Part shown: positions 2,569-64,000 of the stretch, one piece after another | Numbering within the stretch: the first letter of the stretch is position 1 | Layout: the number at the start of each line of letters is the position of its first letter | Source of the DNA: Psammoneis japonica | Taxonomy: Eukaryota | Direction: 5' to 3' | Assembly (NCBI GenBank): GCA_008632985.1 | Contig: QPGO01000250.1 | Span: 1-64,000, forward strand | DNA: 64,000 nucleotides | Position numbers and translations under genes: made by a program | Notes under the pieces: generated by a model | What the model was told of the DNA's origin: nothing | The model's database searches: none | Seen by the model: only the letters and a program-made list of their open reading frames with translations

Positions 2569-5500
2569 TCTTTTTGTTTCTTTGGACTTAGACTACGTGG
2601 ACATGGCGTGTTCGCACTGGAACTCAGCGGCCATTGTCACCGACTTTTTTGTGGTGACCGTGCAGCGTGCAGTGCGCATTTGCAAACGCGTCGGTCAACT
2701 CCGACCGACTTCTGACGACAGCATGACGACGCAAGCACGGACGCGCCGCGTTGGAGGGAGGAAAAAAATTCTAATTGGCTGCCATGCAGTCCTCAAAGCA
2801 ATCACATAATTTGTGTGATGAGCAGGGCACTGCAAACTGACACATCGTTTGCTCTCATCTTTCTCTCAGAGGAGGATTTGCAGACACCAGGAGTGCATGT
2901 GCACTTTTTGAAGGGCTTGAGTGCAACTCCAGTGGGGAAACCTTGGAGGCATGTTTCGCGAGATGACATCAGCTCTGCACAGGCTTTGGATTTTGGTGAG
3001 CTGTTGGTTGCATCGTCAGGGCGCCACTCAAAAAGTTGTTTCTCATGAGTTGTGGCATCACAGACAAGGGTGCAGTGGCTCTTGCACAGGGGCTCAAGAA
3101 AATCAAAAGCTTGAGAGCTGGCCAAATCTGGGTTCCTTGCAAGAGCTCAATTGGAGAAAAAGGACTTTCTGCAATGCTGGAAACAGGGAGAGGTTTGAGA
3201 GAGGCCTGACATTTTGGCAGCTTTCAAGTTGCAAAAGGTGGCTTGAGGAAATCTGGATGTTTGGGTGATTTGAGCTCAAACAACACGGTCTGACATCTGC
3301 TGCTGTGGCTGCAACTTGTGGACAGTCTCTTGTGATGAATCTGGCAGTTGTGCGTGCACAGATTTGTTTTTTGCTGCACAGCAGGTCCAGTTTGCTGCTG
3401 CACTGTGGACTTCAGCTGTTCATGCTGTGCAAGCCTGCGCTGCATGGTTGGTGCATCAGGCTAAAAAGCGAATCTGCAGAACGGAGTGCTGTCATTGGCA
3501 CAAAGACTTTGGCAGCTTGACACAAATGTGAAAAGCAGCAACATGCATGCCTTCTTCTTAAATTGTGTGTGCTGCACATTGTGAAAACCAACCACTTCTT
3601 TGCTCATGCCGCGCAAAGCTGCACATCAACCACCACATTCAAAAATTCAACTGTTGCTTGAGTTTGGACAAATCCATCAAAAGCACATGCGAGCTTTTGG
3701 CATCAAGAACATGTGAGGTTGTGCACTCAGCCTCCACCACAAATTCTCATGTTTCAGTCTTGTTTGTCATTTGCAAGTTGGTTGAAAGCAACTTGGCCAA
3801 CACAGGCCCTGGTCTGTCAACCATTTGGCAACACCGGCCAGCACACCAGGTCTGGAAAAATGCAAACACAAGAGAAAGCATCACAAGAGTTTGCAAAGCA
3901 ATGGCAATGACAAACAAAGCCCCCTTTTCCAAAACCAAGCTTGGCTTGCTTGTCTGCCCCAATGCACTTGACACCAATTCCCATGACAGCTCAATTGCAG
4001 GTTCCAGCCATTCATTCAGTCATTCACAATCCACTCAAGTTGGTGGCACAAATGTCCAACAGCTTTGGGGCTTTCTCATTCACAACACTGTCAATGAGTG
4101 TGGTTTCCAACACAACACCACAAAAGTGTGGGGACAGACCTGTTGTTGCAGGCACAGCAAACAAATGGCAGTGCAAGAGTGCAACAAACTTACAAAGCAG
4201 CAATGAGAGCATGCAAGACAGGTTTCAGATGACACACAATGTGCAAAAAGAATGTGCCACATGCACAACAAAACCAGCTGTCTTTTGTGCAGGGCATCAC
4301 ATGCCTTTCTGCAGCAACTCACTGCCATGGCACCCTGCCCTCCCTTTGCTTTGTTTGTTGCAGCTGCGACAAATGCATCCAGCACCCCAGTCACATGCAG
4401 ACTCTCCACATCAAACTTGGACAACACAACAGAACATGAAGAAGCCCACAGAATAAAAAGCAAAGTGTGTTTTTGCCATCAAGCTGAGCATGTGTCCATT
4501 CTGGACACTTGCTTCATGCAAGGACACCGTGTGGCAGCTTTGCACCCAGATGCACAGAATGATTCTGCAGACAAATTGATGTGCACAGCATCACTTTCAG
4601 TCTTCTCATCACAACCTGAGTGAGCATTTCTTCCTTTGAACTTGTCTTGACTTTTGCTGCACTTTGGTCAGTTGGCTTGCCACACACATCTCTGCAGTGC
4701 CAGCGTGGACACGTCAAAAGCCACTTTGGAGTTGCTTGTCCATTGACAAGGGTGGCAAACAATGCATGAATTTCAAGGCAATTGTGTGGAACAACACAGG
4801 CTCCTCTCTCTCTCCACATTGCAGTGCTGCACCTCTGTCCAAAATGTCACCATGCACATCTTGCACATCAGCACAAGGAATTGCTGTGTTGTGCAAGTCA
4901 CCACAACAAGTGTGATGCAACAATCAAACAATGCTCCAAGAAAATTCCCAATTTCACCCACGCAATGCTGCATGACAAGATGAGCAATGCATGACAAACA
5001 CAAAAAGGTGTGAGAGGTGTCAGAGCAACAGAGACAGCACAACTTTGAAACAACATAAAATGTTTCTCAAGACTGTCAACAATGCACTGATTCAGTCTAC
5101 CACAGATTTTGGATGAACCACCAGAGCACAAACTGACACAGCCTGTGGCTGAACAACAGCCATGACATGCTCAACAACGTTTTGCACCAGAGCTTGGCAC
5201 AAAAAATGATCAAGGGGCCACAAGAATTTGATTGACATGGTTGTTGGCAAGCTCGGGCATTGGGCATCACATCACCCACTTGCCCAGCTACATTTCAATG
5301 ACTGCACATGCAGACATGGACTTTGCATTCACACCACTTTGAAGACTGTTGCAAGAGGTGCACTGGAAAGGTTTGCTGCATTTTCCATTGTGCAGTTTAG
5401 CAGTTCAATGTAGATTCAAAATTTGCAATGACTGAAAGTTGCAAAATGAGATGGGTGCACATGCAGAGTGTTGCGAAGCAGCTGACTCCAAGCAAGTGCC

Positions 5501-7082
5501 TCATGCACCAAGAGTGTCAGCAAAGGAGCCATGATGCTGTTGCCTGTGACACAAGCAGTGTTCCCCAAGCCACACTTTGCAAAGCTTTGCAGTCCAACAA
5601 TGGTGTCTTTGCACAGTGTCACTCAGAACAGCATTGCGCTCCCATCTGCCTCCCCTGGATCACCTTCATCAGAATCAGCCTGTGCTCCCAGACTCTCATC
5701 ATCACTTTCAGCATCTGCGCATGATCCCCTGCTGCTTTCACCTTTGACATCACTTTCCTCATCATCTCCTTCAAAGCCATCTTTGGCGCCAGTGACCAAT
5801 GATCACCATCTCCAAGGCAGCATGTTGATCCTGAAATGTTGCCACACACAAGCAGACGCCCACACCAAGAACACTTTGCATGTTCCACCAGTGCACTCTG
5901 TGGCACAGCAGTGATCAGATGCTCTGATTGGCCCATGGAGTGTCTGTGAAATGGCAAGCTCACTTGCAGAGCTTTGCCGATTGCAGGACAAGGTCAGGGG
6001 TTCTCGATCCCTTTCTTTTCCACACACACATTCTTCTGCCCTCACTCCAATTCTGCCAGGTTTGGAGCCCCACAATGGACACAAGTCCATCTTTGGCAAC
6101 AATGTTGCTTGTGGCATGAGATGCCGGACATCACCGGCTACAAACTGCGTGGTCATCTGATTGGCAATTTGGGCAGCCTTGCCCAATTTTTTGGAATGTG
6201 AAGTGTGGCTGCATGTGCTCTACATTGGCTCAGATGATGTCACCTGCAAACTTGTGCAGGCAGCCTGCTGGGAAAGACATCCATCTGATTGCATCAAAAA
6301 TTGCCGACAGATGGTGTTTTTCTTGCTTGCTTGACTTTCTGTCTTTTGCATCTTGGACAATCACCTTCCTTTCATCTCTCTCACACCATCATTCACATCT
6401 GCATGGTCCAAACTGAAGACTGCCATTGACAGCCCCAATTGCCAGCATGCCCCTGGGACAGAAACCAGTTGGGTTGCAGTGCATGACCTTGGCCAAAGCA
6501 TTGGCTGAAGTTGGGTTGCTGCAGCTTTGCCAGTTGCAAGATTTGTCAAATCTGTTTGGACAGTGGTCACAGCTGGAGCCAACACATCGTGACAGTGCTT
6601 GCAACAACATTGGAGCTTTGCCTTGTCACCTGAACATGTGAGGAGGTTGCTGCTCAATTGACAGGTGAAGCTGCCAATCTTTGCCAAACTTTTGCCCCTC
6701 TGGTGCATGTCAAATGGGACAGCCCCACCATTCTCACACACGCTGCATGATCCATGGCCAAGACCAACTGCTGCTCGTCTCACTGTCCAAACATGAGCAA
6801 TGCCCAAGTTGAAAGACTGAAATGGAGGAAGTCGGAGAGTGGGGTGCAACAAATTAAATCAAACTCACTTTTTGAGTTTGTCCAACCTTTGCAAGTTTTG
6901 TTTCTTTTTCTTCATGCTTCAATGCCAACAAAGCCACCCCTTCCTCATGTTCATGGTGACAGACAACTTCACATCAAACATTGTGATCCAAGCATTCTCG
7001 CCACAGTTTTTGTGTTCAGAGACCTTCTTGCTCCTGGCTCAATTGAACAGGAGTGCTGATGATCCTTTTCCATGTGTCTGAC
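2569..7082. mobile_element. Dispersed ~4.5 kb repeat, copy 1 (degenerate unclassified element or segmental duplicate), TA/CG-depleted
   Basis: Colinear with 29460-33547 from ctttttgtttctttggacttagactacgtgg to gatccttttccatgtg; no protein domain recognised. Confidence 0.85.
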
Positions 7083-7916
7083 CAACACCACGTTGCACAC
7101 CTCAGACAAGGCACATGGCACCCCAACTTTCCCTTCCAGCAGCGCATCAGTTTTTTGGTTGATGGCTTGCAATCAACAAGCACCAATTCCTTCCTGTCCC
7201 TCACCTTCTCCTTTTTTTTCTGGCTGGACAGAATCTTTCCGTGAACGCACAAAGCATGGCAGCCGGCTTGTCATTGACCAAATCAGTTCCTTCACAAGAC
7301 GGTTGAAGCAAGCCATTCATGTCTGGATGACTTTAAACTGGGCATCGGAATGCAAACCAGCAAACACTGCCATCACCACAGCCACAGGACTGCAGTCCTC
7401 TAATGTCATCGCAACAAGAAGAGAAGGAGAGCACTTCAGATCACGTCTACATTTCACCTGAATCAAGTCACCATGACTCCTGATGAACAAATTTGTAGTC
7501 GGTTTTGTTGTGGTTGCAATCTTTTTTGTTTATATTACATTTTGAGCTCGTAAACGACAATGAAAACGACTCATGATTCAGTTTGCAGAAACTGGGCTGG
7601 AGACGTGGAATTGTCGGAAACAACAACAGAGCATCAGTTTACGATTGGTGATGAAGCCGTGACACGAAGTATAATAATATAAGCACAACATTATCATCCA
7701 GCTAGAGGGGTAGGTAAGGGTACCAATGCGTTATTTAATAAGTCTCGTTAGACTTCTCTGCCAAGACAAGGAGGATATACTCATGGCATAGGCACCGGTA
7801 GCTCGACAGCGAACGCAGAGCAAACATGCATGAGATCCCTATCCTGTTTGCTTTGCTGCTCCCAAACCCTAAACACACTTTCGCGAGTGCATAAGGTTTC
7901 GTGATCCGAGCATCGA

Positions 7917-9745: not shown

Positions 9746-12700
9746 CAAGTGACGATGTTCGAGCTTCGGGCACGTGTGTCGCGCAATGGACAGCTTGCGT
9801 ATGCCAAGGTGCGTGCGAGATCGTCTTCGACTGGGTTCGCAGTGCCGCAGAGCGTTGTAGAAGTTGGTTGGACGTCCCACGGTTGGTTGCGACTTGTGGT
9901 CGTTCGTGCGTGAAGGCAGATGCCTGTGTGTGTCCGTCCGCCGCATGCGGTGTGTCTTTGCAGAGCAGAAATAATGAGTCACTTGGGAAATGTCCAGCGA
10001 CATGGCAGTTGGACAGACACATGATGACACGACCACCTGTTGTTGCATGTTGTCAACGAGTGCATTTTGCTTGCACCTGGAACTTGGATGGTGGCTTCAT
10101 TGGTGACATTTCATGTGTCTCAGCATTTTGTTTGGCAACATCAGTGCTGCTTTTTTTTGCAACAGAGCAGTGCAAGCTTTTGCCATTTTTGCCCTGCACA
10201 CTTTTGTTTTCGCCCGTCATTCTCATTTTGGTGAGGTGTGACCTGGCCTGTGCAGACATTTTCAATCACGTGATGAGCACAGCAAGAAACAGATGGTGCT
10301 GCAGATTGTGTCATTGGCTCAGCACTGGCGAGCTGCCATTTGTTGATGGAGCAATGCGAGGAGGTGGCGCGACTTCCCGCGGAGGTCAGCCGGGATTTGG
10401 CTTTGTTTTGGGTGCACTTTGCAGTGCCCATTTGACAGACATGAGCAACACCTCAACCAGCAGCTTTGTTGATGTCAGCGGTGGGAAAAGTTGTCCTGTC
10501 ATCATGCGCAAACTGGCTTGTCCCAAAGGAAAACCATTTGGCATTGACCCGTCCCCTGAGAGGCACAAGGAAGGAAGAAATTGGGCAAAGAAAATGCAGG
10601 GACATGTCCATTGTCAGTTTCTGCTCAAATGTTGAAGATTTCGGTGAGCCGCAAAGTTGGAGAACAGCAAAAAGAGCTGCCAAAAAGGAGGGATTTGTGG
10701 TGCCACAAAGCTGCGCTGGAGAGCAAGAAGCAGAGTCAACAACAAAAAACTGAGGCCAACAAAAGTGGGAAGGTCAAGAGCTTCAAATGTCTGCTTTGAA
10801 GGCTTGTCAAGTCATTGGGTCCTGTGACAAAGTTGCGTCCATTGAAATCTTTGGTTGAGGCAGGAGAGTTGCAATTGTCTCAAAGGTTGGGAGAAAAATG
10901 GCTGTGACTGCACTGTGCTTCATGTTTGACAGACTCACGTGGTGTTTCAGATTTCATTCAACAGGTCATTTGAGCTCAACAAGCACACATTGCAGGCACA
11001 TGTGCCAGCAGAGACTGGCATGATTTGAGGGATTTAGTCACACTTTTCTTTGCAAAGGGAGGAAGCATCACAATGTTCCCTCAATTTTGTGGTGGCAAAA
11101 TTGAAGGGAGGTGAAGGAGTGATGTTGGGTGAGAACAGCGTGTCCACTCAGTTGGCTGTGTGGTGCAGAATTGCATGAAGACCAGCTTGTGACATTTTGT
11201 GAAGCTGCAAGTGTGCACATTGACAGCGCGCGGCAACTCTGCTGTGTGCAAACATTTTGAAGCTTCTTGCCGCTGGCAGCACACCCACTGTGGTTTTTGG
11301 TCATGACCATCTTTGGAGTGGGCACCCCAAAGGGGACCCCGCAGCACTCCAAAGAGCTTGCCAGGCACACAACATCCAAAGTGTTTGTTTTTGGTTCAGT
11401 GCGCAGGAGTGCAGTCAGTTTGGGACAATCACAGGCACACATTGAAAATCATTGTGAGCTGCAGCACAACAAAAAGCTGGGATGCTGACTTGTTTGCAGC
11501 AGAGGGTGCCTTTTTGTCATTTCTGGAGTGCAGCCCAGTGCTGCTCTCAAAATGTGGTTGGGGTGTGGTGGTTTGAAAAAATGTCCAGCAACCTTGGGGT
11601 TTCACCATGCCCAATTTGGACCTGTGTTGGCACGGCTTTTTGTTGACAATCCAAGACAAGTGAGGCAGAGTGGTGAAATGATCACCAACAACCAATCTCA
11701 AGCTGAGCAAATTGCCAGCTCTAATGAGGTGCAGACCTGGCACAGCACAACTTTTTTGGTCTTGTTTTTGTCACAGATTTCTGTTGCTTTTGAGTCCACA
11801 GGAGTTGGGTTTTCATGATGTTTGTTTGGAGCATTGCAAAGGAGCACATGGCTCTCTGTTTTTTAGAGTCAGTGTGGTTGTCCCAACACAGCATGGCTTG
11901 TTTGGGCATCAACCTTCATTGTTTGTTTGGATGGCTCATTTTGGGTGATGGATTGATGTTTGGTGTGCCCACAATCCTCGTCAAAGCAGCTGCGATGAGC
12001 CTCACTTTAACAAAGCTTTCTTTTCTGCCAATGATCTGGTGATGCTGCAAAGTGTGCCTTGATGCCAGAACAGAAGGCTTCAACATGTGGATCTCTTCTC
12101 TGCTGCCAGAGGATTAAAAGGGGAAGAGCTCAGTTTTTTTTTCTGCACAGAAGTTGATGAAGGCAAATTGAGTGCCACGTGTTGTTGTCCTTTTTGCCCA
12201 GTTGGCTTTTTGGGAGGGCACTTGGTGGGTGGCGTCACTTCAGCAGGCACATCTTTGCATCATGTGGTTTTGTTCCACCGCTTGGTCCTCAATTTTTTGT
12301 TTTCTGTTTTGTTGCTCATTCTGTGACCTCTTTTTCCTCTCAAATCATTTTTCCATGACCAAATTGTGAGGTTGTTGGTTTGTGCACTTTTGGATCAATG
12401 TTTGTTGCAGGAGCACAGCAGAGCCTGTTTTTTGCTTTTGGTTTGGCACAGACATCTCTGTTTCTTGGTTGAGAAGTCATGAGGACAAACAAATTTGGTG
12501 CTTTGACAGCTTTGTGAGTCAACACTTTGAATTGTCAAGTGGCCTGGATTGTAAATTTTCTCAAAACCACTCAAGAAAAATCAGCAAACAACCAAACTTC
12601 CCTTTTCACAGTGCACAAAGTCATCCATGGTGGCAGACATTGAGCTCACATGCTTGGTGTGCCAGCTCTTGTTGACCCACCAACTCAACAATGTCGTTGC

Positions 12701-12844
12701 AAGTTTTGCTGTCTGCAGGAACTTTTGTCAAGTTGTTTTCTCACCATGTGTTGCTGCCATGTCAATGGATCTGATGCTTGGAATTGAGGTTAGAAAAGTG
12801 GCAGAGAAGTGTCAACACTCATTGGCACTGTGCCAAAGTTGGGG

Positions 12845-13028
12845 TTGTCAAAGTCACAAAGTGTGTGGAGCATGGAGCCCTCAAGAAGAGAGTCAGAGCT
12901 GGAAAATGTGGTGGCCATTGTGGCTGTTTTGCTCAACAATGCTGAGATTGTCAAAGTCACAGAGTGCATGGAGCCTTTGCAAAGAGAGTCAAAGCTGGAG
13001 AATGGTGGCCATTGCAGTTGTTTTGCTC
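12845..13028. repeat. Imperfect direct repeat, ~103-bp period, 2 copies
   Basis: ttgtcaaagtcac...gagagtca.agctgga.aat..gtggccattg...tgttttgctc at ~12845 and ~12949. Confidence 0.8.
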
Positions 13029-15457
13029 TGCATCAAGCATCCCATGGAAAAAGCAGCACATGAGGAGCAGCACTTGAAAATGGCAACTTAATTCAGCCAG
13101 GAATGTTGGTCAATGCAAAGTGTCAGAAGTTGGCATCTGCTGCTCCTTGTGATCACCTGCTCCATTTTGTGGGTTTGGCTCATCCAGGTGCACTTCAAAC
13201 ACAGCAAGGTGAGCCCAAGCAGAAAGCCATGGATTCACAACATTGATCTGTGTTGTCAGAGTCAGGCCCATGTTTTTTTAACACCCAAGATGCTCAATGC
13301 ACATCAACCCAAAGTTGGGACAAGCATGTCAACATTGGAGCCAACCACATGTTGATGCTGGCAAATTTGGATTTTGGTCCAGGACATTGAGCCTTGCCTC
13401 CATTTTCACTGTTTTGTGAAGACTTCTCTGACAAAGTCTTTTTGCATGCATGGCCAATCCATCAACATGGGCAACAGCTTCAAAGTTGATGCCAAAAAGG
13501 TTTGTTGTGTTGTTGTGTGTTGTGACAGGTCCAAAGTTGGAAGCAAATCTGTGAGCTGCAAAAGCAAGCACACAAAATGAAGGCTTGTTTTTCACCTGCA
13601 TTCCAAGTTTTGCTGTGGAGGTGAGTTGTGTTCCCAAATGTCTTTGTGCTGGGAGCTTTGTCAACATGGAAATGCAGTCATCTTGAACAGCAAAGCACTT
13701 CTTCACAGCAGCCAACAGGTTTGCAGTTCACAGCTGGGGCAAGACATTGCTTGTTGGCTGAAGGTTTGAAATCCAAGGCAGAGTCTGGAGCCTTGTGTCA
13801 TGCATCAGCAGTGGTTGGGCAGTTGTCAGCTGGTGCAGCCAAAGGAGGCAAAACACAAGATGTCTCTTTTGTGGAAGGAGCCAGGCAGAAGCCACCAAGA
13901 AAAAAAACAATCACCTGCCCTCTTGAGGCAACAAGGATTTTTTCAAAAAGCAAAACAGATCTTGCTTCTGCTGCTCTCAAAGTTGTGACTGAAGCCCCTG
14001 CTGTGAGAAGAAAAACTCTTGAAATGGAGCACTTTGTTTTGGCAATGGGGGCATTGTCTCATCATTGTTCAAGTTGACTTGATCAAATTGCATGTTTTCC
14101 AGTGGCTGCACTTTTAAATTTTCACTTGTCAACCAACTTGCTTGGTGCTGTGCAAAACAAGTGTGCCACCCAGGGCTGGCCAAAGTTGAAGAGCATGTGC
14201 AGCCAAACATTTCACCGTGGGGCATTGAGAGAGCACCATTTTCAAAATTGTTTTCCTGACAAGATGACAAAACAACAACCCTTTCTGTCACCTTTCTACA
14301 AAGGAGCTGGTGCAGTGCATGCAAGACATGTTTTGCAAATGCTGCACAGGGGCTTCTTGTTTACAAAGCTGGAGCCATTTGCGATCCAATCAGCAAAGTT
14401 GTGAGTGACAAATGTTTCACTTGGGAAACAATTCATCCAATCAGTGTTGATGCCTGTGGTTTGGGACATCTTACAATGAGACTCTGATTGGTCACATGAC
14501 AGACCACAAATGCATGAAGAGCTGTCCTTCCATTTTTGGAAGATCTCAAATGTGCTTGTTGCACTGCTTTTATGCACACAACACATCTGCTCACAACTGC
14601 AAATGTGCGACATGTGCTGAACAGCCCTTTGACTGTTGTTGCACACCCTCAGAAGATGATGGTTTAAAAAAGTGTCAACGCAAGCAGCATTCATCGAATG
14701 TGTCTCCTGTCAACCCATTTGCATTTGTCACATCTGTCTCCCAATGCAAACATTGTTGTGCACTGTTAAATGTTTTCTCTCAAGTCATCAATCTTCTGTG
14801 TGTTTTGATTGCCACCAGAATTTTGACTGATGAATCAAATCCTGCCATGTGCCGAACAATGCCACACCAAAACAACCATGAAAAGTGCCTCATCGCCATG
14901 TTGAAATGCTTGAAAAACAGAGACTCTCTCAACCCACATGTGCCACATCCTTTTTACATGAGAGTGATTGACACGTGCGTGGCGCTGGTCTTGTCATTGT
15001 CAAACAATGGGCTGCGCATGTTGAGTGCAAAGTCAGAGGTGCGATTTTGCGATGGTTGCAAATGAACACCATGACGTCACACATTTGATTCTTTGGAAGG
15101 AAGTGCAAACCAAAACAGTTAAAAAATGCCTGGAGGTGCAACTTTGCAAGGACTGTTCTCAAAATTGTGTGCTGACAATTCTTCCAAAGTCCATCAGATC
15201 ATCTGCCATGGTGTGAACTTTCAATTGTGGAAGCATGAAAAAATTCTGTCAAGCCAGTTTTTTTTTAATTGCAAAAAACCGCTTGGCAACAGGTGCAAAA
15301 AATTTCATGCTGAGGGCAAAAAAGTGCATGATGGTGCCAGGTTTAGATGAGGGGGTTGGGTGTCGCCTTTCCGGGTCCCTCCCCAGAGTCAGCGATGTTT
15401 TGGTGTGGCATGCATTGAGCACCTGGTGGCTGCAACAGCACCAGTGTGGGCCTCATG

Positions 15458-16247
15458 ACACTCCACCACCCTTCTCAAAGTGTTCCCTGGGTGCTTTCAA
15501 AGAACTTCAATGCCCTTGGGATGGTTGGCTGCATCAGGATGTTCTTTCACTGTGGAGTTGGGGGTTTTGGCACTCACCATGGCATGGACCAAGTGACTGG
15601 GGGGTGCAAGTGCACCAGATGAGCCCTTCAATGCCCAACCTCCATTCTCAAAGTGTTTGTTGGGTTCCACCACTGGAAACCTTCAATGCCCTGAGCATGC
15701 AGTTGGTTGGTTGGTTGCATCAGGAAGATGCTCTTTCACTGGCAGCTTTGTCCAGAGCAGCTGCACTGGGCAAGTTGTGCAACTCTCAACTGCTGTTCTC
15801 AGTTGTTCTTTGGCTTCCACTTGGGATCTTCAATGCACCAGGTGGGCGCCTTGCAACACTCCACCACCCTTCTCAAAGTGTTCCCTGGGCACCTTCAAAG
15901 AACTTCAGTGCCCTCAGCATGCAGTTGTTGGGATGGTTGGTTGCATCAGGGTGTTCTTTCACTGTGTGGTGGTTGGGGTTTCAGCACTCACCATGGCATG
16001 GATCAAGTGACTGGGGGGTGCAAGTGCACCAGATGAGCCCTTCAATGCCCACCCTCCATTCTCAAAGTGTTTGTTGGGTTCCACCGGAAGCCTTCAATGC
16101 CCAGAGCATGCAGTTGGTTGGCCAGTTGCATTGGGAGGATGCTCTTTCACTGGCAGCTTTGTCTGGCGCAGCTGCACTGGGCAAGTTGTGCAACTCTCAG
16201 CTGCTGTTCTCAAGTGTTCCCTGGCTTCCGCTTGGGATCTTCAATGC
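15458..16247. repeat. Tandem duplication of ~400 bp with internal cttcaatgccc sub-repeats
   Basis: Units 15458-15836 and 15856-16247 both begin acactccaccacccttctcaaagtgttccctggg. Confidence 0.9.
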
Positions 16248-17088
16248 CCTTGGAGAGAACTTTGGTGACAAAAAGCCAAAAATGCTCATGTTCTTTCTGT
16301 TTTTCTCCTTTGGCACAAACACATGATTGTCCCATGCACACCAGCACAGATTGTGCATGTTGTTTTTGTTGGATCATTGTGACCAGTGATGTGTCACTCA
16401 GCTTTTTTGTTTTCCTCGCTGAGGTTCCAACTCGTGGACAAACAGTGCTGCAATGATGGAGTGAGATCCTGGGGCCCATGCTTTTGTTCAATTCCAGCAC
16501 TCATCTGCCGCAGTCCTCCAGAGCAAATGACACAACATGCACTGTGCTGCAGTGCACTGAGCACCGGCGGGTGCAGCAGAGAGAGAGAATGCTGCATGCA
16601 GCATGGCTGTTGGTTTGTTGTGACATGCCATTGGCAGTTGCTTCACTTGGTTGATTGTTGTGTTGGTGCAGCGCCTCACTCAGCTCTTGAAGTGCACATG
16701 AATTTTCATGGAGTGAAGCACAGACTGCACTGAGATTGCCTGCAGAAATCTGCCAAAGATGAGAAAAACATCCACCTGATTTTTTTCGTAAAATGGCCAA
16801 AATCCACTTTGTTTGCCCATCCTGATGTCGTTTTTGAGTTTTTTGGTGACACTTGTCTTGGTGAACAGCGCCCCCTGTGCCACCCGCAAAAGCCAATCCC
16901 TTCCAGACAACATGCCAAAGAACAGCCCTTTCCAAAAAAGGTCAAAAGTGGAAGCAAGAGGCAAAGAAGCAGCGACATTTAAATTGATGCCATTCAAATT
17001 GGTGCACTTCAATCAGTGTGTGGAAGCAGACTGCAAACTTTGCCATCTTGGGGAGGACACAGGCACTCGCAATCTGCAGAGCACCTTT

Positions 17089-17326
17089 GCAGAGCACCAG
17101 CTGATTGGAGTGCTCTGCCAAGCACATCCAATGACACTGCAATGCTCTGCAAAGCATTCAACGACACTGCAATGCTCTGCAGAGCATCCAATGACACTGC
17201 AATGCTCAGCAGAGCATTCAACGACACTGCGATGCTCTGCAAAGCATTCAATGACACTGCAATGCTCTGCCGAGCATTTGACAACACTGCGATGCTCTGC
17301 AGAGCGCTCCAATCAGCTGGTGCTGC
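17089..17326. repeat. Six 30-bp tandem units with a palindromic core, flanked by ~28-bp inverted repeats
   Basis: Units start at 17131, 17161, 17191, 17221, 17251 and 17281 (consensus atgacactgcaatgctctgcagagcattca); flanks gagcaccagctgattggagtgctctgc and gcagagcgctccaatcagctggtgct. Confidence 0.9.
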
Positions 17327-17942
17327 TCTGCAGAGTTGGTCTGTGCAGAGACACTGCTGCTGAGTTTCCATCTACACACTGCTCAGATTGCTGCAGAGTT
17401 GCAATCTACACACTGCTCAGATGGACACTGCTCAGCCTCCAGCTTGACAAGATTGTAGTGCTTGTCAAGGATTGCAGTGCATTCTTTGTAAAACAAGCTG
17501 TTGTGCTGTGGTCAGGGTTTGCATGCGTGCGTGTGACAGAAGTGCATGCAACATCATGTGTTCAAATTCCGATGACGCACGAGGTTGAAGCCGTTGCACG
17601 CGTGTCGTGCTGGAGCTCGCGTTGCGCGTGCTGGATCCCACAACAGCGATTTCTGTCGGCACAACCCGGGGTCGGCACCGGTGCACGTGGGATCCCATGT
17701 GGAGGCTCCGGCAGCCTCCCGGGGTGTGCATGCATCGCCAGGCCGAATCCGGGGGCAGCTGTGGATGGGGACACCGTGGAAATCATGCAGGTGCCATTTT
17801 TTTGGCAAAATCAATCTCTCTGCCCAAATGGACCATGGTGGTCATCAAGGTCGTGACAAAAAAAAGTGTCACCATCACGATTCATGAGACTCAACGTGCG
17901 GTCACAACGTGCAATGTGGAGCTTCCATCTCCCAATCGCTGA

Positions 17943-18665
17943 GACCCTGTCCAAACTGGACCATGCCTGTGTACACACCTGACATCATGGAGCCGAAAAT
18001 GAGCCTCTTCAAAAAAATCAGTGGTTGTCAGCCCTGTGCATGATGCATTTTTAGGCCATGCGCACTTTGGTGAGCCTCGGAAACAGCATGCCCCAAACAA
18101 CATGCCCCCGAGTCGACACACGAGACGACCCAGAAGCAGCATTTTTGATGCAACGAAAGTGCGCATGGCTGTGCCTTTTCCAAGAACAACCCACAACCTT
18201 CTCATGTGTGAGGCACTTGCTCTGTTTAGGTTGCTTTGCGTGCCGTTCTTGTCTCATCACGACGCAGCATTTTCCCTGAACATTCTCTCAATCAACCCGC
18301 GGCAGATGCTCACACAGTGAAGTTGTTTGCACATGAGTCACACACAATTTTAATTTTGCGATCGATTTTTGTCCTTTGCTTGGCTTGTTGTCGCCTTGTG
18401 GCTGCGTTCTCGTTGTCATGGTGGCATCTCTCTCGTCATGTGTTTTTGTTCTGTTCAACCCCAACTTCATCCATGCAGTTGGTTTGGCACCCTGGTTTGA
18501 TGATCAACCTCCATCACTGACAAAACATGTGGAATCAGGGTTGTAACATGTTTGTGCATGGATGAAGTGGGGGCATGCACAAAAGGGGTGTGACCCTGTG
18601 ACATCTGCAAAAAGGCTTCGTGACGTCAGGTGTGTGCACAGGTGTGGTCCAGTTTGGACAGAGTC
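17943..18665. mobile_element. MITE / non-autonomous DNA transposon, PIF/Harbinger-like
   Basis: ~52-bp TIRs: gaccctgtccaaactggaccatgcctgtgtacacacctgacatcatggagcc (17943-17994) matches the reverse complement of 18614-18665; flanking triplets TGA and CAA are both one transition from a TAA target-site duplication. Confidence 0.75.
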
Positions 18666-19352
18666 CAAGCAACCACCAAGTCAACCTGCCGTTTCTCACC
18701 AAATCGCTCTCCTGCCCTCAGGATCATTGCAAAAAGTTGCACTTTCGACACCATCGTGTCCGCCGTCATCGAATTAGGCTGGGTGCATCGAAGCACAACT
18801 TTTGACTGCAATCTCATTGAGTGATTTTGAAGTGTCAGCAGATGTCCACGCAACTCGTTTGAACAACATACCGTCATCCAAATGGCACTTTCATGAGGCA
18901 GAACTGAGACGCCTGAACAATGACATCTCCCAAAATCAAAGCCAGAATGCTGCACAGTGTTTGCAGTAGAAGAGGTGAGTGCATGAAGTGTGTGCAGCAC
19001 TGCACACAACGTGCAAATCGAGTCAGAACTTGCTTGCGACGCTGGTCATACAGTGCGTTCTTTTTTTACTCACACACGCTTCATTGTCGTCATGTTGTTC
19101 CCAGAATCATGTGCAGAGTGAACAAATGAATCCATGATGCAGAGTGAATCGACGCAAGTGGGCGATTTTGACGAGGACGGCGCGGGAGCATGCAGCAGCA
19201 GCAGGAAAACCCAGTCTGACGCATCTGGGAAGGGCCCGTGAGCAACGACTTGAGACAATGTGATGCAATGCCTCAAAGAGTGTCCATGTTCTCCTTGGCA
19301 AGGCTTCCTCAGTTATTTGTCTGCTGCCATGAGGAAGCAGAGCTCGTTGAAA

Positions 19353-47787: not shown

Positions 47788-47998
47788 CCACGGCCAGCCG
47801 CCGCTCACCGCGGGGATGTTTGTGTTGTCAACTTCTTGCATTTCAAAAGAGTGTGCTGCATGTGATCTTGACAAGCGCGCGCCCGCTGATGGATGACAAT
47901 CGTGTGAATTTGAACTTGTCTGAACGGGGCCACAAATGAGTGAAACAACAATCGGAGGCAGGTGCATTGCATTGCTGAAAGACACCTTTTTGCCAACA
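47788..47998 (+). repeat. Mutated paralog of the upstream region (52505-52790) of the Cys-rich gene
   Basis: Shared blocks ccacggcca, gctcaccgcgggg, caagcgcgcgcccgc.gatggatgaca.tcgtgtgaatt, tgcattgcat..tgctgaaagac and tttgccaaca. Confidence 0.85.
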
Positions 47999-48014
47999 GC
48001 CAGGTCATGCCCGA

Positions 48015-48317
48015 GTGTTCCAGTGCCACAACTCTACAGATCGTTGGGTCCAAACAGGAAAGGGCATTAACCAACTTGCTGCTGACGATGCTTTTGGCCA
48101 CTCTGTGTCTCTCTCATACGCGGGATACATTCTTGCCGTGGGAACGCCGTCTGACACCACCGAAAAAGGCTTTAATTCAGGATCAGCGAGATTGTTCCGA
48201 TACAGTCGTGCCACATCATCCTGGCAGCAGCTTGGACAGACCCTTCTCGCTCAAGCACAAGGAGAGTGGTTTGGCGAAAACTATGTAAATGATGTAGAAA
48301 CCATGTACCAATCGTGA
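48015..48317 (+). pseudogene. FG-GAP (integrin-alpha-like propeller) repeat fragment
   Basis: WVQTGKGI...DAFGHSVSLSYAGYILAVGTP...GSARLFRY...WQQLGQTL...EWFGEN; only about 1.3 repeats. Confidence 0.7.
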
Positions 48318-49659: not shown

Positions 49660-50049
49660 TGTCAAACCGTATGCGCTTTGCGAAGTGGAAGTATAGTAAA
49701 CATCGTCGTCGGACGACCGTGGTTTTACTACTCTGTTGATGGATGGTTGCACCTAAGTACCGTCCGTGCACTCTTGACACGTGACACAGTCGATGATGGA
49801 AAGTTCTGAGAGTGAGTCGGCTTATTCCGGGGGGGGGGGGGCACGGTAAGCTCTGGCGGTTTTTTCGGAAGATGAGGTGTGAGTTAGTTTTAGGTGGGAT
49901 CATTGAAACATGTGTGAGCATTCAAACAATTGATGTTGGGCTGCTGCAACCAAGGGATGCGTTGAGAACTTTTGCAACAGTCACCGCTTGTTGCGCTCTT
50001 TGCAGGCCACCAGCACTCGCAATGTCGAGACTGATCTGGAGGTGACTGG

Positions 50050-51197
50050 CGCCAGTGTGGCAAGTCGTGGAAGCAACCGCATGGACTCCTCATTGCTTGT
50101 CACGTGTGCTCAATCTTTCCAGCATGCAGTTGATGGCAAGGACATTTCTGTTGGTTGCTTGGTGACAGAGCCATTCATCGTCATGTCTGCGAGAAGAATG
50201 GCCCACACCCAAATGGCCCAAAGGAGGCTGGTGTGGCTCGTGGCAATGACAGTTTCGACAACTTGGTTGGCCTCACCAACACAAGATCTGTCATTGACGC
50301 CAACACCAAATCTGTCTCCCGCTGCAAAGCCAACAGTGTCTCCAACAGTTGACGCAACTTCTCCATCCAGTGTGGCTCCTGCCACTTCAAGCCCCCGCCC
50401 AAATTTCCGCGGCAACCCCGCTGAGATGCTCCAGCCAGTCTGCCAACAATGCCGCTTCCAACGCTCTGCCCAACTCCAAGATGCGGACTCACCAAAGCAC
50501 GTGGGTTCAGTCTTGCCATGCAACACTTGTCCAATGGGTTGCCATGCCGATTGTTTGCTTGTGGCGCGGCAGGAGCACCACAAAGTGTCTTGTCGCCATT
50601 GCCACATCTGGAAGTTCCAAGGAAAACGCCTGCACAGTGGCTGCAAGCATGGACAAAACAACAACTCTCAGAGCCAAGAATTGTCTCTGATGTTGGCACT
50701 TTCTCTGCACATCTTTGTCAGTGCCGTCAGTCTCCACTCGAGTGACCTCGGCTGGAGCAAGTGAAGCTGTTCCCAAAACTTGCTGGTTCTCTTCTTGCAG
50801 GCTGACACATTTTGACTTCCACAACGTGTCCAAGCTGGGCTTCCACAGCAATGGCTTCACCTTCAGCATTGTGGTCACTGCTGGAGGAAGACACAGGCGG
50901 GTTTTTGGGTTGCGCTGTTTCAATTTCAGTCAGGTCATCATTGCCGCCCCCTGCTCTTGGAATTTGTCTGCAGCAATTCAGTGCAAAGGCACCTGGCACA
51001 ACACTTGTGGACGATGAGAGGAGAGCATTTGGTTCATTGCTTTTTGGTGGTGATTCATCTTCTTCATTGTTTTGGGCACATGAGAGAGAATCTTTGCCGG
51101 CAGCCACTGAAGGAGTGGCTCCTGGATCTTCTTCTTCCAGCAGATCATCATCATGCTCTTGTTCTGATTGCTTTTGCACTTTTGCTTTTTGGTTCAT
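50050..51197 (-). pseudogene. TA-depleted relic of an FG-GAP-repeat membrane protein gene
   Basis: Acidic disordered N-terminus with VVPGAFA...AVEAQL, followed by WQPIGQVLHG...CFGESAS and GFAAGDRFGVGV in shifting frames. Confidence 0.55.
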
Positions 51198-52504
51198 CTC
51201 AGTTCTGTGAACAAGGCATCCACAATGCCTTTTGCAAGCAGCAGCACTTTTTTAGAGGATGCATCAGCAAGGGGGGAATCTTTGTCAACTGCAAGCAGCA
51301 GCTCATCTTTTTGCTGAGATTGAAGATCATTTTCGATGTTCTCTTCTTTGGGCTGTTTTTTCTGAACTTTTTCTGCTTGCTTCAACTGACCTTGACAAGA
51401 CATTTTGTTTTCATCCAACTTGCCAGCATTTGTCAAGTGAAAAGAATGCTGTCTGAACAGTCAAGTGTTGCATTTTTCAGAACAATCAGAGCGCCTTTGC
51501 AGGTCTTGAGGTCAGCAGTGACGCAGGCTTTGCATGTTTGTGTGGTCACTTTGCTCAAGTTTCATCCACCAAACTGATTTTCACTTTTTGCCCAAAACAC
51601 CCCGCACAACATTGCAGCACAAAGAGCAAAGAGTTGTGACGTTGGTGAGCTGCAGTGCATGGGAGCTGCATTTCAGCACGACCACCTGGTGATCAAACCA
51701 TTCGGAACATCTGCCGGAAGAGGCCATGCAAGCAGCCTTTGGGAAGTGGGGTGTGGCTCAAGGCCAGAGCCTGTCTTTGACAACTTCTTTGGCATCAGCA
51801 TGGAGGCAATTGATGCACTGAATTCTTCCTGGCCACCAGCACCACTCTGTGGACAAAACCATGATCTCGCGCTTCCCGCGGAAAAATCCAATCTGTCTCC
51901 CACAGTCAACCCGCTCGTTGCGTGCCGGGAGCCCCACAATGCCGCACCATCCAATCCACACCCTTGCAACATGAGCTCCAGCCAGCAATCCAGGTGACTC
52001 TTGACAAACTCGCCAACACAAAATCACTTTCGCTGGCACTTGTTTGTTGTTCCTGATGACCACACTGATGCTGTTGCTCGCTGTCGACCTGGATCCTTTG
52101 TGTGCTGCAACTCCTGCAATGCCTGGTCCAAAGCTCAGCCCAACATCACGCGGCGGTTGTTTGCCACAAAATGTGACATGAGATCTGTCGAGGCTGGGCC
52201 AATTGTGGGCTTGTCAAAGGATCCATGTCCTTGTCGGGCGATGGCACACTGTGAGTTTTGACCCAAGAGCGCAAAGCAGCAACGTTCTTGCTGATGAACG
52301 GCGACTCACCATCTTCGTTCAGTGACTTTCACGTGTTTTTTTGCATTGAGATTGTTGGAGGCAGACAAAAACGAAGGAAGGAAGCGTTTTTCAGCAGGCC
52401 CTGCTGCCGCAGCCAGAACCTGCTTAAAGATGACGTCACAGTGCAAAATGCCATTTGTAGCTCGCTGCGCGACGCGGCCGAGTCGTCGTCCGGCCGTCGT
52501 CCAG

Positions 52505-58761: not shown

Positions 58762-60500
58762 TCGAAGCATATTCCTTGGAGACGACGGTCACCTTGGGAC
58801 GGTACTATTTTGTTTACATAAAGATTGTAGGGAATACATCTGTAAAAGTTCATTACATAAGTTCGATGTAACAGCTCCGTTTCGCTGTTTTCTTGAATTG
58901 ATCTAGAAGATCGTCTCAGGCATTAGTGAGGTGTACTCAACGAAGTTTGCCGGGAACATCTAAACGCATCACCTTCCACGTCCAGAGCGGGAGCAATTTG
59001 CTAAGCTCTTCTTCTAACTCTGGATTTTTGTCACCGTTGTCGATCTCTCAATCCCTCTGAAAACTTGATAAGCCTTTTTTAAAAATGACTTTGCAGCCGT
59101 AGAGCTTTTTCTTTTTTGCGTTTGACGCATCTTTTGTTGGCAAAAAGGCTTGGCAGGCGACCTGCTTGCATGCATTGCTAATGTAACTACGGTGCCTGTG
59201 TTTCTTGGGGACCCTTCATGTACGGCACGATATTCCGAAGCAAATCACCGAACGATTTCGTATTGGTAGGATGCATCCACCATATCCAGCAGATCGAGCT
59301 CGTTCCCTACATCTCTGTAAGAAGGAGGCGCAAATAGACTCAGATTGTGGGCCATATTCATTTGATCGGTACCCTTTCCACTTGTGGAGGCTGGTCCGTC
59401 CAGCCTGAGGGTCTTGAATTACCGCAAATCGAGCGGGGAACTATCAAGACCAAAACTTTCCATTCACGATCTCCAAGACACTACTACGTGAAACTCGATT
59501 GGCAAAAGTCAGAGGGGGTGTGTTCTCAGATATAGGAACGAAAAAGCTTTCCAACAAATACTTCGCCTCTGCTCCTGCAATTTTCCCGTCAAGTGCGAGA
59601 GCGACATCTGAATTTGCTTCTCTTCTGGCAAGCCAAAAGAAAGTCCATAAGTCATTCAGGTCTGTCAAAACTGAAACGACAGAATGTTTGGGGTTTGGGC
59701 ACGCCGCTGTTAAGTGTGTCACCGACTGCCTGCGGGGTGTGATCCTTCTCCCGTAAGTTCTTGGGTCGCTCTTCAATTCAAGCAGGACTTCAGTTTTTTT
59801 TAACTGGGCACAGAGTTAAAGAGCCCATTGAGAAGGACGGGGAACAGAAGAAGGAGGCACGGAAGTGGCTGCACCAGTGGAAGGGATGCATGATGCATGA
59901 TGCAGCTGTGGGGCGCTTGGCAGAAGGCGGAAAGGAGGAGCGCGCGAAGAGCGGAGCATCTCTACAGTATGATAGCTAGAGGAAAGATGATGCGCCAGCC
60001 AGGTTGCAGCCAGATGTTCTGAATGGCCCACGACACGTGCCGCCAAAGCGAGCGGTTCCGGCAAGCTTTTCGTGCTAGTTGGTGGTTCGTGTTCGCACAA
60101 CCCTTCTCAACGGACATTACTTAGGGTAACCTCGGGTTGACCTGTACCATATTGCGATACTGCTAGTTTTCTAGACCTCTAGAAAAATCGCAATAACAAA
60201 TTGATTCTCTTTTGTGGATAGCCAATCTCTAGAAAAGTAGCATTATTACATGCATGCGATGTATGTCCGTTGCATCCAAATTTTAAAAGAGACAAGGCCA
60301 ACGAAACAGCACATCAAATGCCATTGCGGCCGCACTCTTCACCATGGCCAGCAAACGTGGTAGCAACGGTGGCGCCAGGAAAGGTGCTGGATGGCCTCGC
60401 ATTTCCATGACTCCTCATGGGAAGTGGAAAGAGTTTCTTTCGAGGTGAGTTGGGGGGGGGGGGGCTGCTGGAGAGAAAGCCCCGTTCGAAGCCGTGCCAG

Positions 60501-60548
60501 ATTCTGGCTTTCGCATCACAAACAATTCTGGCTTTCGCACCACAAACA
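60501..60548. repeat. 24-bp tandem duplication
   Basis: attctggctttcgcatcacaaaca / attctggctttcgcaccacaaaca. Confidence 0.9.
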
Positions 60549-61039
60549 TTGCTCAGCTCTGCCAGACGCTCACCGCGTCAGTGAGCAATGCCGATTGCAG
60601 TGACATCTCTGCTGGATTGTTGCTCTCCGGATTGGTTGATGGCGAGATCTGTCTGGCTCCGCACGGCCGCACGAAACTCAAGTCATTTGGTGCACGGCAC
60701 TTGCGACGAGAGCAGGGAAAATGCAAAAGCCTGCAATCTCAGTTTCTGCTTTGCGACACAAAACAACATGAGTCATCAGCCATGGTGTTGTCAATGCTTT
60801 CAACATTGTTGTCGTTCCGTGAAAAAAATCCTGTGCTTTTTGGCCCACGAAGCGGAATTTTGAACGGAGAAATGTCATTTGAACAGACACCGCAAGTGAG
60901 TTGAATCGTTTCCAGCACCTCAGCCACAGCAAATGTAGAAAAAAGGTGGATGAGTGCATTCTGGGCACGGTCTGCAGCAGTCTCTTCAAAAAGCAGGGCA
61001 ATCCGACCAAGTGGCCTTCTTGCATTTTCATTGTTGACG

Positions 61040-61250
61040 ACGACAACGAATCTTGATGCGGTGGGGCACACCACCAAGGCAACCCATCGTTCGTCAAGTT
61101 CTGTCAGATGAGAGCAAGCTCGCACGTAAATTTGTCATGCGGGTGACATGGCAGGGCCCTGTGTGTTTTCTCATCAATCTGCTCTGGCTGCCGCATCCGC
61201 AGAGCATCACCGGTAAAAAGGTGGTAGAATCGAGAGGCTGGAGAGGACGA
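61040..61250 (+). pseudogene. Possible degraded DUF6824-like domain
   Basis: CGGAHHQGNPSF and SKLARKFVMRVTWQGPVCFL in adjacent frames resemble CGRG..H.GN..F and K..IA..IV..V...G.RFL. Confidence 0.25.
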
Positions 61251-64000
61251 GAATGACCAATGAGAGCACATTCCCTCTCTCCACTCACCAGGAGTTGCTG
61301 ACAAAGTGTGAATGGAGGAAGCTTGCCTGCACGTGCTGCCTGGGAATCAGTCGATGCCGCGCCACTGTTGCAGCCAGCAGGATGTCCCCGCTTGCAACGA
61401 TTCCACCCCCTCCCGCGGGTCACTTCCTCCCACAGCCATTTGCCTTTCTGTCACAAGTGCCACCTGCATTTCCACCAGAGCACTGCCATCACATGATGCC
61501 TTGTCCCCCAACGTGCCAACCACATGTGCCTCCGGCAATGCTGCTCTTCCCAAAGGTGGTGCAGCAGATTGTAGACCACCACAAAAACAATTCCATGCCC
61601 TTGAATTTTCTGTAAAAAACAAAGATCAATGAAAAACAAAAAATGAGTGAGAAAATTGGTGAAAGCATGATTGACAATCGAAACAGTGCCAGCCTGTCTC
61701 GAATCGCACAATCGATTTTCTGGCACACTTTGACAAAACCACAAATCCACAATTCTCACTGACACAAAATGTGACCAACCTTGTCGGATAGATTGTGGAA
61801 ATGTTGTTAAGAATGAAAAAAGAAACGGGAACAATGTTGATGTTGTGTTCTGTAACTTGCACCAAAGGTGCCATGGTCGATCGACAACCGTCGCAATGAT
61901 GTCGCGGTGCTTTCAACAAACTCAAGATTTAACATCCGGGTTACTTTTGTGCGCTGAGGCTCGCTTCGCTCGCCGTTAAATTCAAACGGTCACCAACTAG
62001 CCCAAAAAATTTGCCGCGGTTCCAGGCAAAATCAGCAGAAGGAAGGAGAGCAGACGGGGAGGTCACGGCGTGGAGAAAGGCAGAGCAGGAAGCAGCAGAG
62101 TTGCAGAGGTCGGCAAAGGAAGACCAAGGAGGCTTGGGCAAGGACCAGGTGAAGGAAAGCGTGGAGCTGAAGAGAAAGCAACGACTGAAGCAGCTGAGGC
62201 TGCCAAGGTGGTCAACGGCAAAAGAAAGGGCAAAGATGCCGCTGTTTTGTTGAGGGAGGCAACAGCGAGGAGCCCATCAGAAGAAGAGGTGGGAGGTCCA
62301 AGGAACTTCAACCTCACACTCAAGTGGTGTGCCCAAGCTGAAACAGGGAAAAAGAGAGCAGCAGGCAGACCAGGAGGAGGCAGGGTGGAAAAGGAGCTTG
62401 GGGGAGACGGCGACATCAACAGCAGTGCAGTGGCAGTGGGAGGGAGCCAAAAGAGAGAGGCAGGAGGCAGCACGGAAATGCTGATGTCAGCATGGCAAAG
62501 AAGCAGGTGGCCAGAGCAAGGTTTGCAGCTTTAAGATGAATGTCTTCAGAAGAGCAACAGAGCTTGGCAAGAGGGCCCAATGTCAGGGACACAACGAAGA
62601 GGGTGTCATGAAGGCTGTTGGAGAGGTTGGACTTGTGAGCACATTCACAAGAGAAAGCATGATTGCTGCAGGCATCAAGCACAATGTGGTCAACATGCTG
62701 CATGGCAAAATCTTTTTGTGTTGAGTTTGTGTTTTCTTTTTTTGTGCCATTTGAGTGCTGACATGCTCCTGCCCTGGGCATGAGCTTGCAGCAGTGCTGG
62801 CCTGTCACACAGCCATTTTTTGCCATCATTTGCATGCACATTTCTGCTGTGTGTGCTCTGCCAAGGAGTTGCTCCACACTCCCCATTTGCAAAGCTCAAG
62901 AAATTTCATTTGGTGCACTTGCGGGAACAGCAGCACGCCAAGCACGCTCTTCAATGTTGGAAGAGAACACACCATGCTAAGCAAGAAACGATGCTCTTCA
63001 ATCATGGACAAGTTTGTGCATTTGCAAAATTGCCTCTTTTTCTGTTGGCAATCATTGATTTGTTCATCACCTGACAATTTTGCTGCAGAGCTCACACACA
63101 GAATTGGTCTGGAATGTGTCTGCTTGCCAAAGATGCCATCTGTGGCCCTGCTTTGTCACGGCTTTGTGGGTGCAGGGCTGATTGTCTCACATGATCAGCT
63201 GTTGCTTCTGCAATGATGGCATGTTTTTCACAGTGTTTGCACCACACCAGCACTCCAATCAAGAAGCCTTTCTCACTTGCTGCTCCCACTTGACAACCCT
63301 TTGTGGAAAGTTTTGTGAACAATGTTGGTGTGCTTGCAATGCTCTTGGCTTGCTTCTCAGGGACTTGGCTGGCTTGCAAACATGGCACGCCATTTTTCAC
63401 CATCACAATTTCTGGATGCACTCCAATCACAGGTGGGAATCCGCTCGACAGTGTGTTGGAACATCTGGGTGCAAGGTGGTTCTTTTGCTGCTGGCAGAAG
63501 GGCAGACAGACAATGTTGCAGTTTGTGACACACTGGCGATTGTTGTGATGCGGTGATTCTGCATTTTTGCAACTCTTGACAAGCTGCAGGTCATGTGCTC
63601 ACTTTTTAGCTTCTGCACCTGGTTGACACAAAAACAGCATCAAAAGCATCCGAAATGTGTTTGCAGGCCATGCAGTGAGTTGGGGATCAGCAAAGCCAAA
63701 CGCACGCTGGCCCGCAAGCTGTGCAAGTCCAACACAGCAGCTGAAAAGTCATGGCATGACACTCAAAGGAGTGGCATCATTCAAATGCAAAGATTCTGAG
63801 GGCCTTGCTGTGGGACAGCCACAAGGGCTGCCGAAGGAAGGCGCGGTGAGGTTGTGTCAAGCTGGGACAAAATGGGCAAGGATGCTGAGTGAGGAAGTGC
63901 AAAACAGATTCAAAGGAGCGGGTGCATGATGCCATTGCTGAGTCAGGGCGACAGGCAGATGGTTGCACAGAGACTGTGAGAAAGATGAGCAAGCATGTCA

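Follow-up and report, generated by a model that had tools for sequence, protein, structure and literature searches.

Hypermutation at TpA dinucleotides is known from one preprint (Mettrop et al., 10.64898/2026.01.13.699255), which followed Bigelowiella natans through mutation-accumulation lines, and our literature search found no second paper on TpA hypermutation. According to that preprint, 231 of 302 nuclear point mutations fell in two integrated viral regions, made up of nucleocytoplasmic large DNA virus (NCLDV) and virophage DNA, and 230 of these 231 were A>G or T>C changes, all at TpA (10.64898/2026.01.13.699255). The rate was about 6e-7 per site per generation in the viral regions versus 3.5e-10 elsewhere, and the mutations occurred in some lines only. 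The preprint further describes 124 clusters of 1-kb windows, mostly unannotated, with TpA depletion and a gain of CpA plus TpG, and proposes an ADAT2-like DNA adenine deaminase (10.64898/2026.01.13.699255). In this study, we analysed a 64-kb window, that is, the whole stretch of 64,000 nucleotides at the start of contig QPGO01000250.1 of Psammoneis japonica, in which seven domains have lost nearly all TpA. The window would be a further, far more saturated case of TpA hypermutation, in diatoms, of a kind known from that one preprint. An earlier note on this DNA knew of no description of such a process; the TpA>TpG/CpA hypermutation measured in B. natans now provides one.

Other known processes share some of its features. 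Fungal RIP (repeat-induced point mutation) is likewise a transition hypermutation of repeated DNA, with sharp borders and elements rendered unrecognisable, but it changes C to T at CpA, which makes TpA and lowers G+C. It is set off by duplicated sequence ahead of meiosis and requires a RID-type DNMT. The decay of methylated CpG, set in diatom repeats by DNMT5, converts CG to TG or CA within repeat domains, as is also seen here, but it cannot remove TA. ADAR and APOBEC footprints in retroelements consist of clustered deaminase-type transitions with a neighbour preference (a 5' U for ADAR), and they are strand-asymmetric and partial. Repeat methylation has been reported in another diatom (PMC5124317).

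We counted all 16 dinucleotides in the window as 1-kb sliding observed/expected (O/E) ratios and segmented the window into depleted and normal DNA with a two-state hidden Markov model (HMM) on P(A|T). The two analyses gave seven depleted segments with a total of 30,934 bp (48% of the window), and the HMM gave seven normal segments with a total of 33,022 bp (Table 1). The depleted DNA contained 90 TA (2.9/kb) and the normal DNA 1318 (39.9/kb), with TA O/E values of 0.01-0.07 versus 0.55-0.62 and P(A|T) of 0.011 versus 0.154 (Fisher p = 7e-282). The longest run without TA measured 1795 bp in depleted and 261 bp in normal DNA, and a run of at least 1 kb has a probability of 5e-18 at the normal TA rate. 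CG fell from 53.5 to 19.1 per kb between normal and depleted DNA, while TG rose from 76 to 111 and CA from 74 to 113 per kb, each reaching an O/E of about 1.8 in the domains. Only TA (O/E 0.04) and CG (0.32) lay below the range of the other 12 dinucleotides (0.80-1.29), with AA/TT at 1.25 and AT at 0.80. The borders were abrupt, the TA density switching within tens of bp.

Table 1. Positions of the TA-depleted domains and of the repeats and edges associated with them
Feature	Position	Strand	Description	Composition or alignment
TA-depleted domain 1	2598..7333		copy A of dispersed repeat; another 250 bp at right end also TA-free	14 TA, TA O/E 0.04; CG O/E 0.23; TG 1.86; CA 1.90
TA-depleted domain 2	9864..20561		composite, 10.7 kb	40 TA, TA O/E 0.06
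TA-depleted domain 3	29312..33544		copy B of repeat	9 TA, TA O/E 0.03; CG O/E 0.23
TA-depleted domain 4	37523..39552			5 TA, TA O/E 0.04; CG O/E 0.21
TA-depleted domain 5	44956..48033			5 TA, TA O/E 0.03; CG O/E 0.28
TA-depleted domain 6	49895..52424		CG only half depleted	1 TA, TA O/E 0.01; CG O/E 0.46
TA-depleted domain 7	60370..63998		least complete, runs off the window	16 TA, TA O/E 0.07; CG O/E 0.47
Repeat copy A	2569..7082	+	pairs with 29460-33547; 610-bp indel at 3237-3850	89-90% identity (blastn)
Repeat copy B	29460..33547	+	TA-free state ends within 10 bp of homology end	first TA at 33551
CpG-rich, TA-free 5' edge of copy A	2598..2770			0 TA (6.9 expected at normal rate); 20 CG, O/E 1.42
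CpG-rich, TA-poor 5' edge of copy B	29312..29660			2 TA (13.9 expected); 34 CG, O/E 1.29
Tandem duplication (~400 bp) in domain 2	15438..16247	+		7 CA/TG swaps in 85 aligned YR (pyrimidine-purine) steps
30-nt tandem array in domain 2	17125..17313	+		one site: CG in 2 units, TG in 3, CA in 1

These results bear out the sharply bounded TA-poor, CG-poor and TG/CA-rich domains described in the earlier note, with coordinates that agree, and the comparison of dinucleotide O/E with the flanks that it had suggested was run here within the window. For domain 2, its start stood and its end did not, the limit now lying at about 20.56 kb (not 21.3), followed by intermediate DNA to about 21.4 kb. The absence of TA noted by eye in 15361-16320 was correct, as this interval belongs to a run with zero TA across 15344-16789 in domain 2. 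The intermediate zone at 20561-21400, which adjoins domain 2, has a TA O/E of 0.35-0.40 and a CG O/E of about 0.6; it overlaps an open reading frame (ORF) at 20566-21354 in which Tyr codons are still present.

Compared with fungal RIP, the direction of change is opposite. With a CpA O/E of 1.79, a TpA O/E of 0.04 and nearly equal G+C in depleted and normal DNA (0.49 versus 0.48), the domains have neither the TpA excess nor the G+C drop of RIP, which was rejected as the source, as the earlier note had also held. The B. natans process, in contrast, is alike in that only TpA is lost, to TpG or CpA by strand, in that the loss is confined to regions (seven segments here) against a normal genome background, and in its long-term footprint of TpA depletion with CpA+TpG gain in mostly unannotatable 1-kb clusters (10.64898/2026.01.13.699255). 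It differs in its host, a chlorarachniophyte (rhizarian) rather than a diatom (stramenopile), and in its degree, with a TA O/E of 0.45 in the NCLDV region versus 0.01-0.07 over 48% of the window here. The main target in B. natans is single-copy, integrated viral DNA, whereas the targets here appear to be dispersed repeats in which no viral hallmark was found. CpG decay is superimposed here, while the available parts of the B. natans text mention neither CpG, flanking context nor diatoms, and de novo mutations were measured in B. natans whereas the present case is known from its footprint in the sequence (10.64898/2026.01.13.699255).

The mass balance of the domains was examined through YR steps. 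These numbered 245.8 per kb in depleted and 242.8 per kb in normal DNA, i.e. they were unchanged, and the YR sums were also conserved per flanking context (xYRy). The domains gained 74.4 TG+CA per kb, which corresponds to the 37.0 TA and 34.4 CG per kb that they lost, taken together, indicating that CG loss alone explains under half of the gain. In a simulation on the window's own normal DNA, 95% of its TA and 72% of its CG were converted, either transition being chosen at random, which gave a TG/CA O/E of 1.80 (observed 1.79) and a G+C of 0.480 (observed 0.490). The fit was imperfect elsewhere (GC 1.07 simulated versus 1.29 observed; AT 0.93 versus 0.80), as expected because genes and repeats differ from the outset. 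YR conservation and the simulation together indicate that the domain composition is that of normal DNA of this genome after transition-only removal of TA and CG. They provide indirect evidence, as do the A/B differences given below, that the TA products are probably TpG and CpA, which A>G or T>C transitions would have formed on one strand or the other.

TG and CA were near-equal in every kb of the domains (asymmetry -0.25 to +0.18), indicating that both strands were hit. Both this and the near-complete loss differ from ADAR and APOBEC footprints, and the order of 3' neighbours given below, T>C>G>>A, is unlike that of ADAR. From the counts, and assuming apparent equilibrium, the removal of TA is calculated to outpace, per base, the transitions that create TA at least about 38-fold (6923/(2x90)).

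The timing of the conversion could be followed in repeat copies A and B, since domains 1 and 3 were the only related pair among the domains within the window by blastn. In the A/B alignment, transitions outside YR steps were found at 86 of 1968 positions (4.4%), and CA/TG double swaps at 40 of 905 aligned YR steps, versus about 1.6 expected by chance. As a CA/TG swap needs a TA or CG intermediate that is resolved differently in each copy, conversion continued after the two copies split. There were also 11 sites at which TA stood opposite TG/CA, and 35 at which CG did. Most converted sites were identical in A and B, indicating that most of the change predates the split and that the process was cumulative along the lineage of chromosomal copies. 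A short-lived TA/CG transit at equilibrium was rejected as the sole source of swaps, because it predicts about 14 with unresolved sites counted, versus 40; part of the 40 thus came from TA or CG still present at the split. Swaps also occur in the tandem duplication of domain 2, and the three forms of one site in the 30-nt array indicate that CG was ancestral there (Table 1).

The A/B homology has four ends. TA density was back to normal within about 10 bp of two of them, while at the other two a further 150-250 bp were TA-free and may be element parts absent from the other copy. No general leakage of TA loss into the flanks was seen. Such borders would also be left if the composition had been acquired before or during insertion, from a TA-free donor (e.g. 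a virus) or by APOBEC/ADAR-like editing of extrachromosomal intermediates, and the lack of recognisable host-like genes within the domains fits as well. However, independent editing of a TA-bearing master predicts that about half of the converted sites are swapped, far from the 40 of 905 seen, and at least six unrelated sequences share the TA-free state. Both strands are hit about equally, unlike in cDNA editing, and the conversion that went on after the copies split also argues against this origin, which we regard as very improbable.

The surviving TAs follow a flanking-context rule. We counted TA by 4-nt context in ten classes, and the counts in depleted and normal DNA, respectively, were 0 and 80 for ATAT, 1 and 113 for GTAC, 2 and 202 for ATAC, 1 and 148 for ATAG, 3 and 64 for CTAG, 8 and 159 for ATAA, 15 and 179 for GTAA, 18 and 205 for CTAC, 18 and 111 for CTAA, and 24 and 51 for TTAA. 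RTAY was erased, while TTAA was about half retained. A survival model with one factor per neighbour, multiplied over both strands and worked out by hand from the context counts, fitted nine of the ten classes, with factors of 0.69 on the T side, 0.22 for C, 0.10 for G and 0.07 for A. Many surviving TAs stand in TGTAG/CTACA, which belongs to CTAC/GTAG, the one class that the model under-predicts, e.g. at 5411, 6221, 14297, 17373, 17407, 20041, 31923, 32725, 60936 and 61572.

Because TpA is self-complementary, a 3'-neighbour rule for adenine (T>C>G>>A) and a 5'-neighbour rule for thymine are indistinguishable. The same regional process could then be thymine-directed: in silent chromatin the T of TpA would be modified, e.g. 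by a TET/JBP-type enzyme that oxidises it to 5-hydroxymethyluracil (5hmU) or 5-formyluracil, and would change to C through mispairing with G. For the same reason, the contexts, swaps, strand symmetry and mass balance fit T>C as well as A>G; moreover, in dinoflagellates 5hmU is found preferentially at TpA, and 5-formyluracil can pair wrongly with G. Against this route, the listing of one literature search on 5hmU with diatoms and transposable elements yielded only a dinoflagellate review, and the B. natans authors favour adenine deamination, without proof (10.64898/2026.01.13.699255). We consider the thymine route unlikely.

TA loss and CG loss were uncoupled. The 5' edges of both repeat copies lack most or all of the expected TA and are CpG-rich (Table 1), and within domain 2 the CG O/E ranged from 0.00 (13.0-14.0 kb) to 0.76 (17.5-18.5 kb) while TA O/E was at most 0.11 throughout. 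TA loss is calculated to be about 3-6 times faster than CG loss when the fractions that remain in the less decayed domains are compared. Because the two losses are uncoupled both spatially and quantitatively, two processes fit better than one, and the earlier idea of one system converting both TpA and CpG is not supported, given the CpG-rich TA-free edges and a CG O/E that varies while TA stays low. CG>TG/CA decay from ancestral CG was found at the array site (17125-17313), and the 35 A/B sites with CG opposite TG/CA agree with it. Of the two processes, methyl-CpG decay would here run more slowly and less completely, and it is absent from the CpG-rich edges.

A single RIP-like machine, triggered by duplication and acting on both TpA and CpG, would account for TA and CG both becoming TG/CA in the same domains and for domains 1 and 3 being duplicates, and diatoms do have DNMT4 enzymes related to fungal RID (PMC9998398). 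The TA-free edges with a CpG O/E of 1.29-1.42 and the CG range in domain 2 at uniformly low TA speak against it, as does the main B. natans target, which is single-copy (10.64898/2026.01.13.699255). RIP, moreover, creates the TpA that is destroyed here, and a single machine of this sort seems improbable to us. Alternatively, deamination of 5-methylcytosine could trigger error-prone patch repair, which would link CG and TA changes within methylated DNA and for which a polymerase-eta-like signature, the WA motif, would be expected. AA, however, was not depleted (O/E 1.25), the changes were transitions only with YR sums conserved, and TA was erased where CpG is intact, so that we give patch repair hardly any weight.

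The assembled sequence was compared with public reads. Logan contigs (31-mers) of one public run, X1, with a word depth of about 60-250, were aligned to window positions 1-20000 and covered all 30 bins. Inside domain 2 they showed no differences over 348 bp (13828-14175) and 769 bp (14162-14930), and one difference in a 417-bp contig (18975-19391). Accurate reads therefore carry the domain sequence, although every public run that contains the stretch goes back to a single sample of a single study, and the X1 match is not an independent replication. Run X2 covered 9 of the 30 bins, eight of them in or overlapping normal DNA and one (5337-6003) inside domain 1. Among the runs that contain the stretch, none was listed as RNA. 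Contigs of X1 and X2 both join position 460 to 1245, skipping 784 bp, which points to a deletion or insertion variant in the sample. An assembly or base-calling artefact at modified bases would be compatible with all runs stemming from one sample and one study, but it is contradicted by the exact 31-mer contig matches at this depth, and a strand-dependent misread predicts a difference between copies A and B at about one in two former TA sites, whereas they differ at 4%. Its probability is negligible.

Taken together, we consider a regional TpA-specific A:T>G:C hypermutation of silenced repeat DNA, combined with ordinary methyl-CpG decay, to be the probable explanation. The mass balance, the CA/TG swaps, the abrupt borders and the context rule all support the TpA-specific process on repeat or silenced DNA that the earlier note had put forward. 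According to this explanation, the domains would be silenced nuclear repeats of the diatom, altered within the chromosome by two separate context-specific transition processes. The first would be a regionally targeted, TpA-specific A:T>G:C hypermutation on either strand (TA>TG or TA>CA), effectively saturating, which would stop at the ends of repeat elements, prefer RTAY and largely spare TTAA. The second would be the ordinary decay of methylated CpG to TpG/CpA, slower and absent from the CpG-rich edges. Action in situ, and a process of the same kind as that measured de novo in B. natans, are what we infer from the footprint.

The chemistry that we favour, tentatively and with less than even confidence, is enzymatic adenine deamination, giving hypoxanthine at TpA in DNA; an ADAT/TadA-like enzyme or another deaminase, brought to chromatin that is silent or foreign, would carry it out. 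The diatom DNMT4 enzymes, whose function is unknown (PMC9998398), and the lineage-specific deaminases fused to Tudor arrays that are described in stramenopiles (PMC3239186) are leads only.

Several points weigh against this explanation. The data from the window fit adenine-side and thymine-side chemistry alike and point to no particular enzyme. No TA-bearing source copy was seen in the window, so the direction of change rests on the mass balance and the B. natans precedent, and the substitution spectrum comes from one pair of copies without outgroup polarisation. The pure transit model under-predicts the swaps (about 14 versus 40), and CTAC/GTAG survives about four times too often for the context model (18 seen, about 4 expected), an excess that might reflect extra influx from CAG/CTG. 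Run X1, which supports the sequence, may derive from the sample that was assembled. Finally, the searches inside the domains, which covered ORFs from 70 aa upwards and the read-through of domain 1, turned up no protein domain of a transposon or virus, so the label of repeat or foreign DNA depends on the one repeat pair and on near-alike contigs for window positions 1-20000.

These contigs are many; they are 90-99% alike and align to this part of the window, with transitions making up 399 of 560 kinds of change, and at this degree of likeness they fit dispersed repeat families. In the protein searches, which took in 238 ORFs (128 + 110) with a length of 70 aa or more, no Pfam family reached the curated cut-off inside the domains, the one family above cut-off being FG-GAP_2 in ORF 47979-48314, almost wholly outside domain 5. 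No Pfam match was found in the three plus-strand read-through frames of domain 1 with stops written as X. A phmmer search with ORF 49934-50761 against 1.84 billion representatives gave no matches, and tblastx between normal and depleted DNA and among the depleted domains gave tiny matches only. By these searches, the domains would be classed as 'unclassified repeats'. By eye and without profile support, ORF 49934-50761 has a PHD-like Cys/His spacing, and a leucine-rich repeat (LRR)-like remnant of RNI type, broken by TGA stops, lies at 3030-3210 (+, frame of 2562), with a copy B counterpart at about 29920-30080.

Genes were recognised in and around the normal DNA. Two exons of an isocitrate lyase (ICL) gene, interrupted by introns, lie at 24150-24947 (-), with E values of 4e-35 and 5e-27 to Pfam ICL. 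The exon at 24441-24947 (-) had 166 homologues, and every named one was from a diatom (identity at most 82%), indicating a diatom host and bearing out the earlier assignment. An atlas look-up with the ICL exon pointed to no useful taxon. For ORF 52810-54213, the homologue search gave four weak matches only, with 29-34% identity. F-box-like ORFs occur in normal-composition DNA at 22727-23770 (+) and 39630-40748 (+), the latter starting less than 100 bp from the right border of domain 4. A 1313-aa open frame at 54808-58758 (+) matched no Pfam family, has high TG and normal TA, and holds a 36-nt (12-residue) tandem repeat at 56115-56319. Domain 5 is flanked directly by a sulfatase fragment on the left (44412-44819, -) and an FG-GAP/Kelch-like fragment on the right (47979-48314, +), and it may have been inserted between, or into, genes.

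If the explanation is true, a process measured in only one chlorarachniophyte also operates, at saturating strength, in diatoms, a major group of phytoplankton, where it would have reshaped about half of this genomic region and erased the transposon or viral identity of the DNA. In another diatom genome, 40% was reported as 'unclassified repeats' (PMC5124317). The TpA process would also be shown to be independent of CpG methylation decay, and a TA O/E below 0.1 with TG/CA near 1.8 would be a simple means of recognising silent or foreign sequence in the genomes of algae. The context rule, with RTAY sensitive and TTAA resistant, offers a yardstick for candidate enzymes, and a natural DNA A-to-G editor would interest base-editing work. 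A wider proposition, which we regard as doubtful, is that TpA hypermutation is no peculiarity of Bigelowiella but an old genome defence across the algae of the stramenopile, alveolate and rhizarian (SAR) group, driven by a chromatin-recruited DNA adenine deaminase, which would be an enzyme of eukaryotes that naturally edits A to G in DNA and prefers RTAY. It would be saturating on all silenced diatom repeats, so that TpA would behave as a 'second CpG', marked or attacked in silent chromatin alone and decaying 3-6 times faster than methyl-CpG, and this would explain why diatom repeats are in large part unclassifiable.

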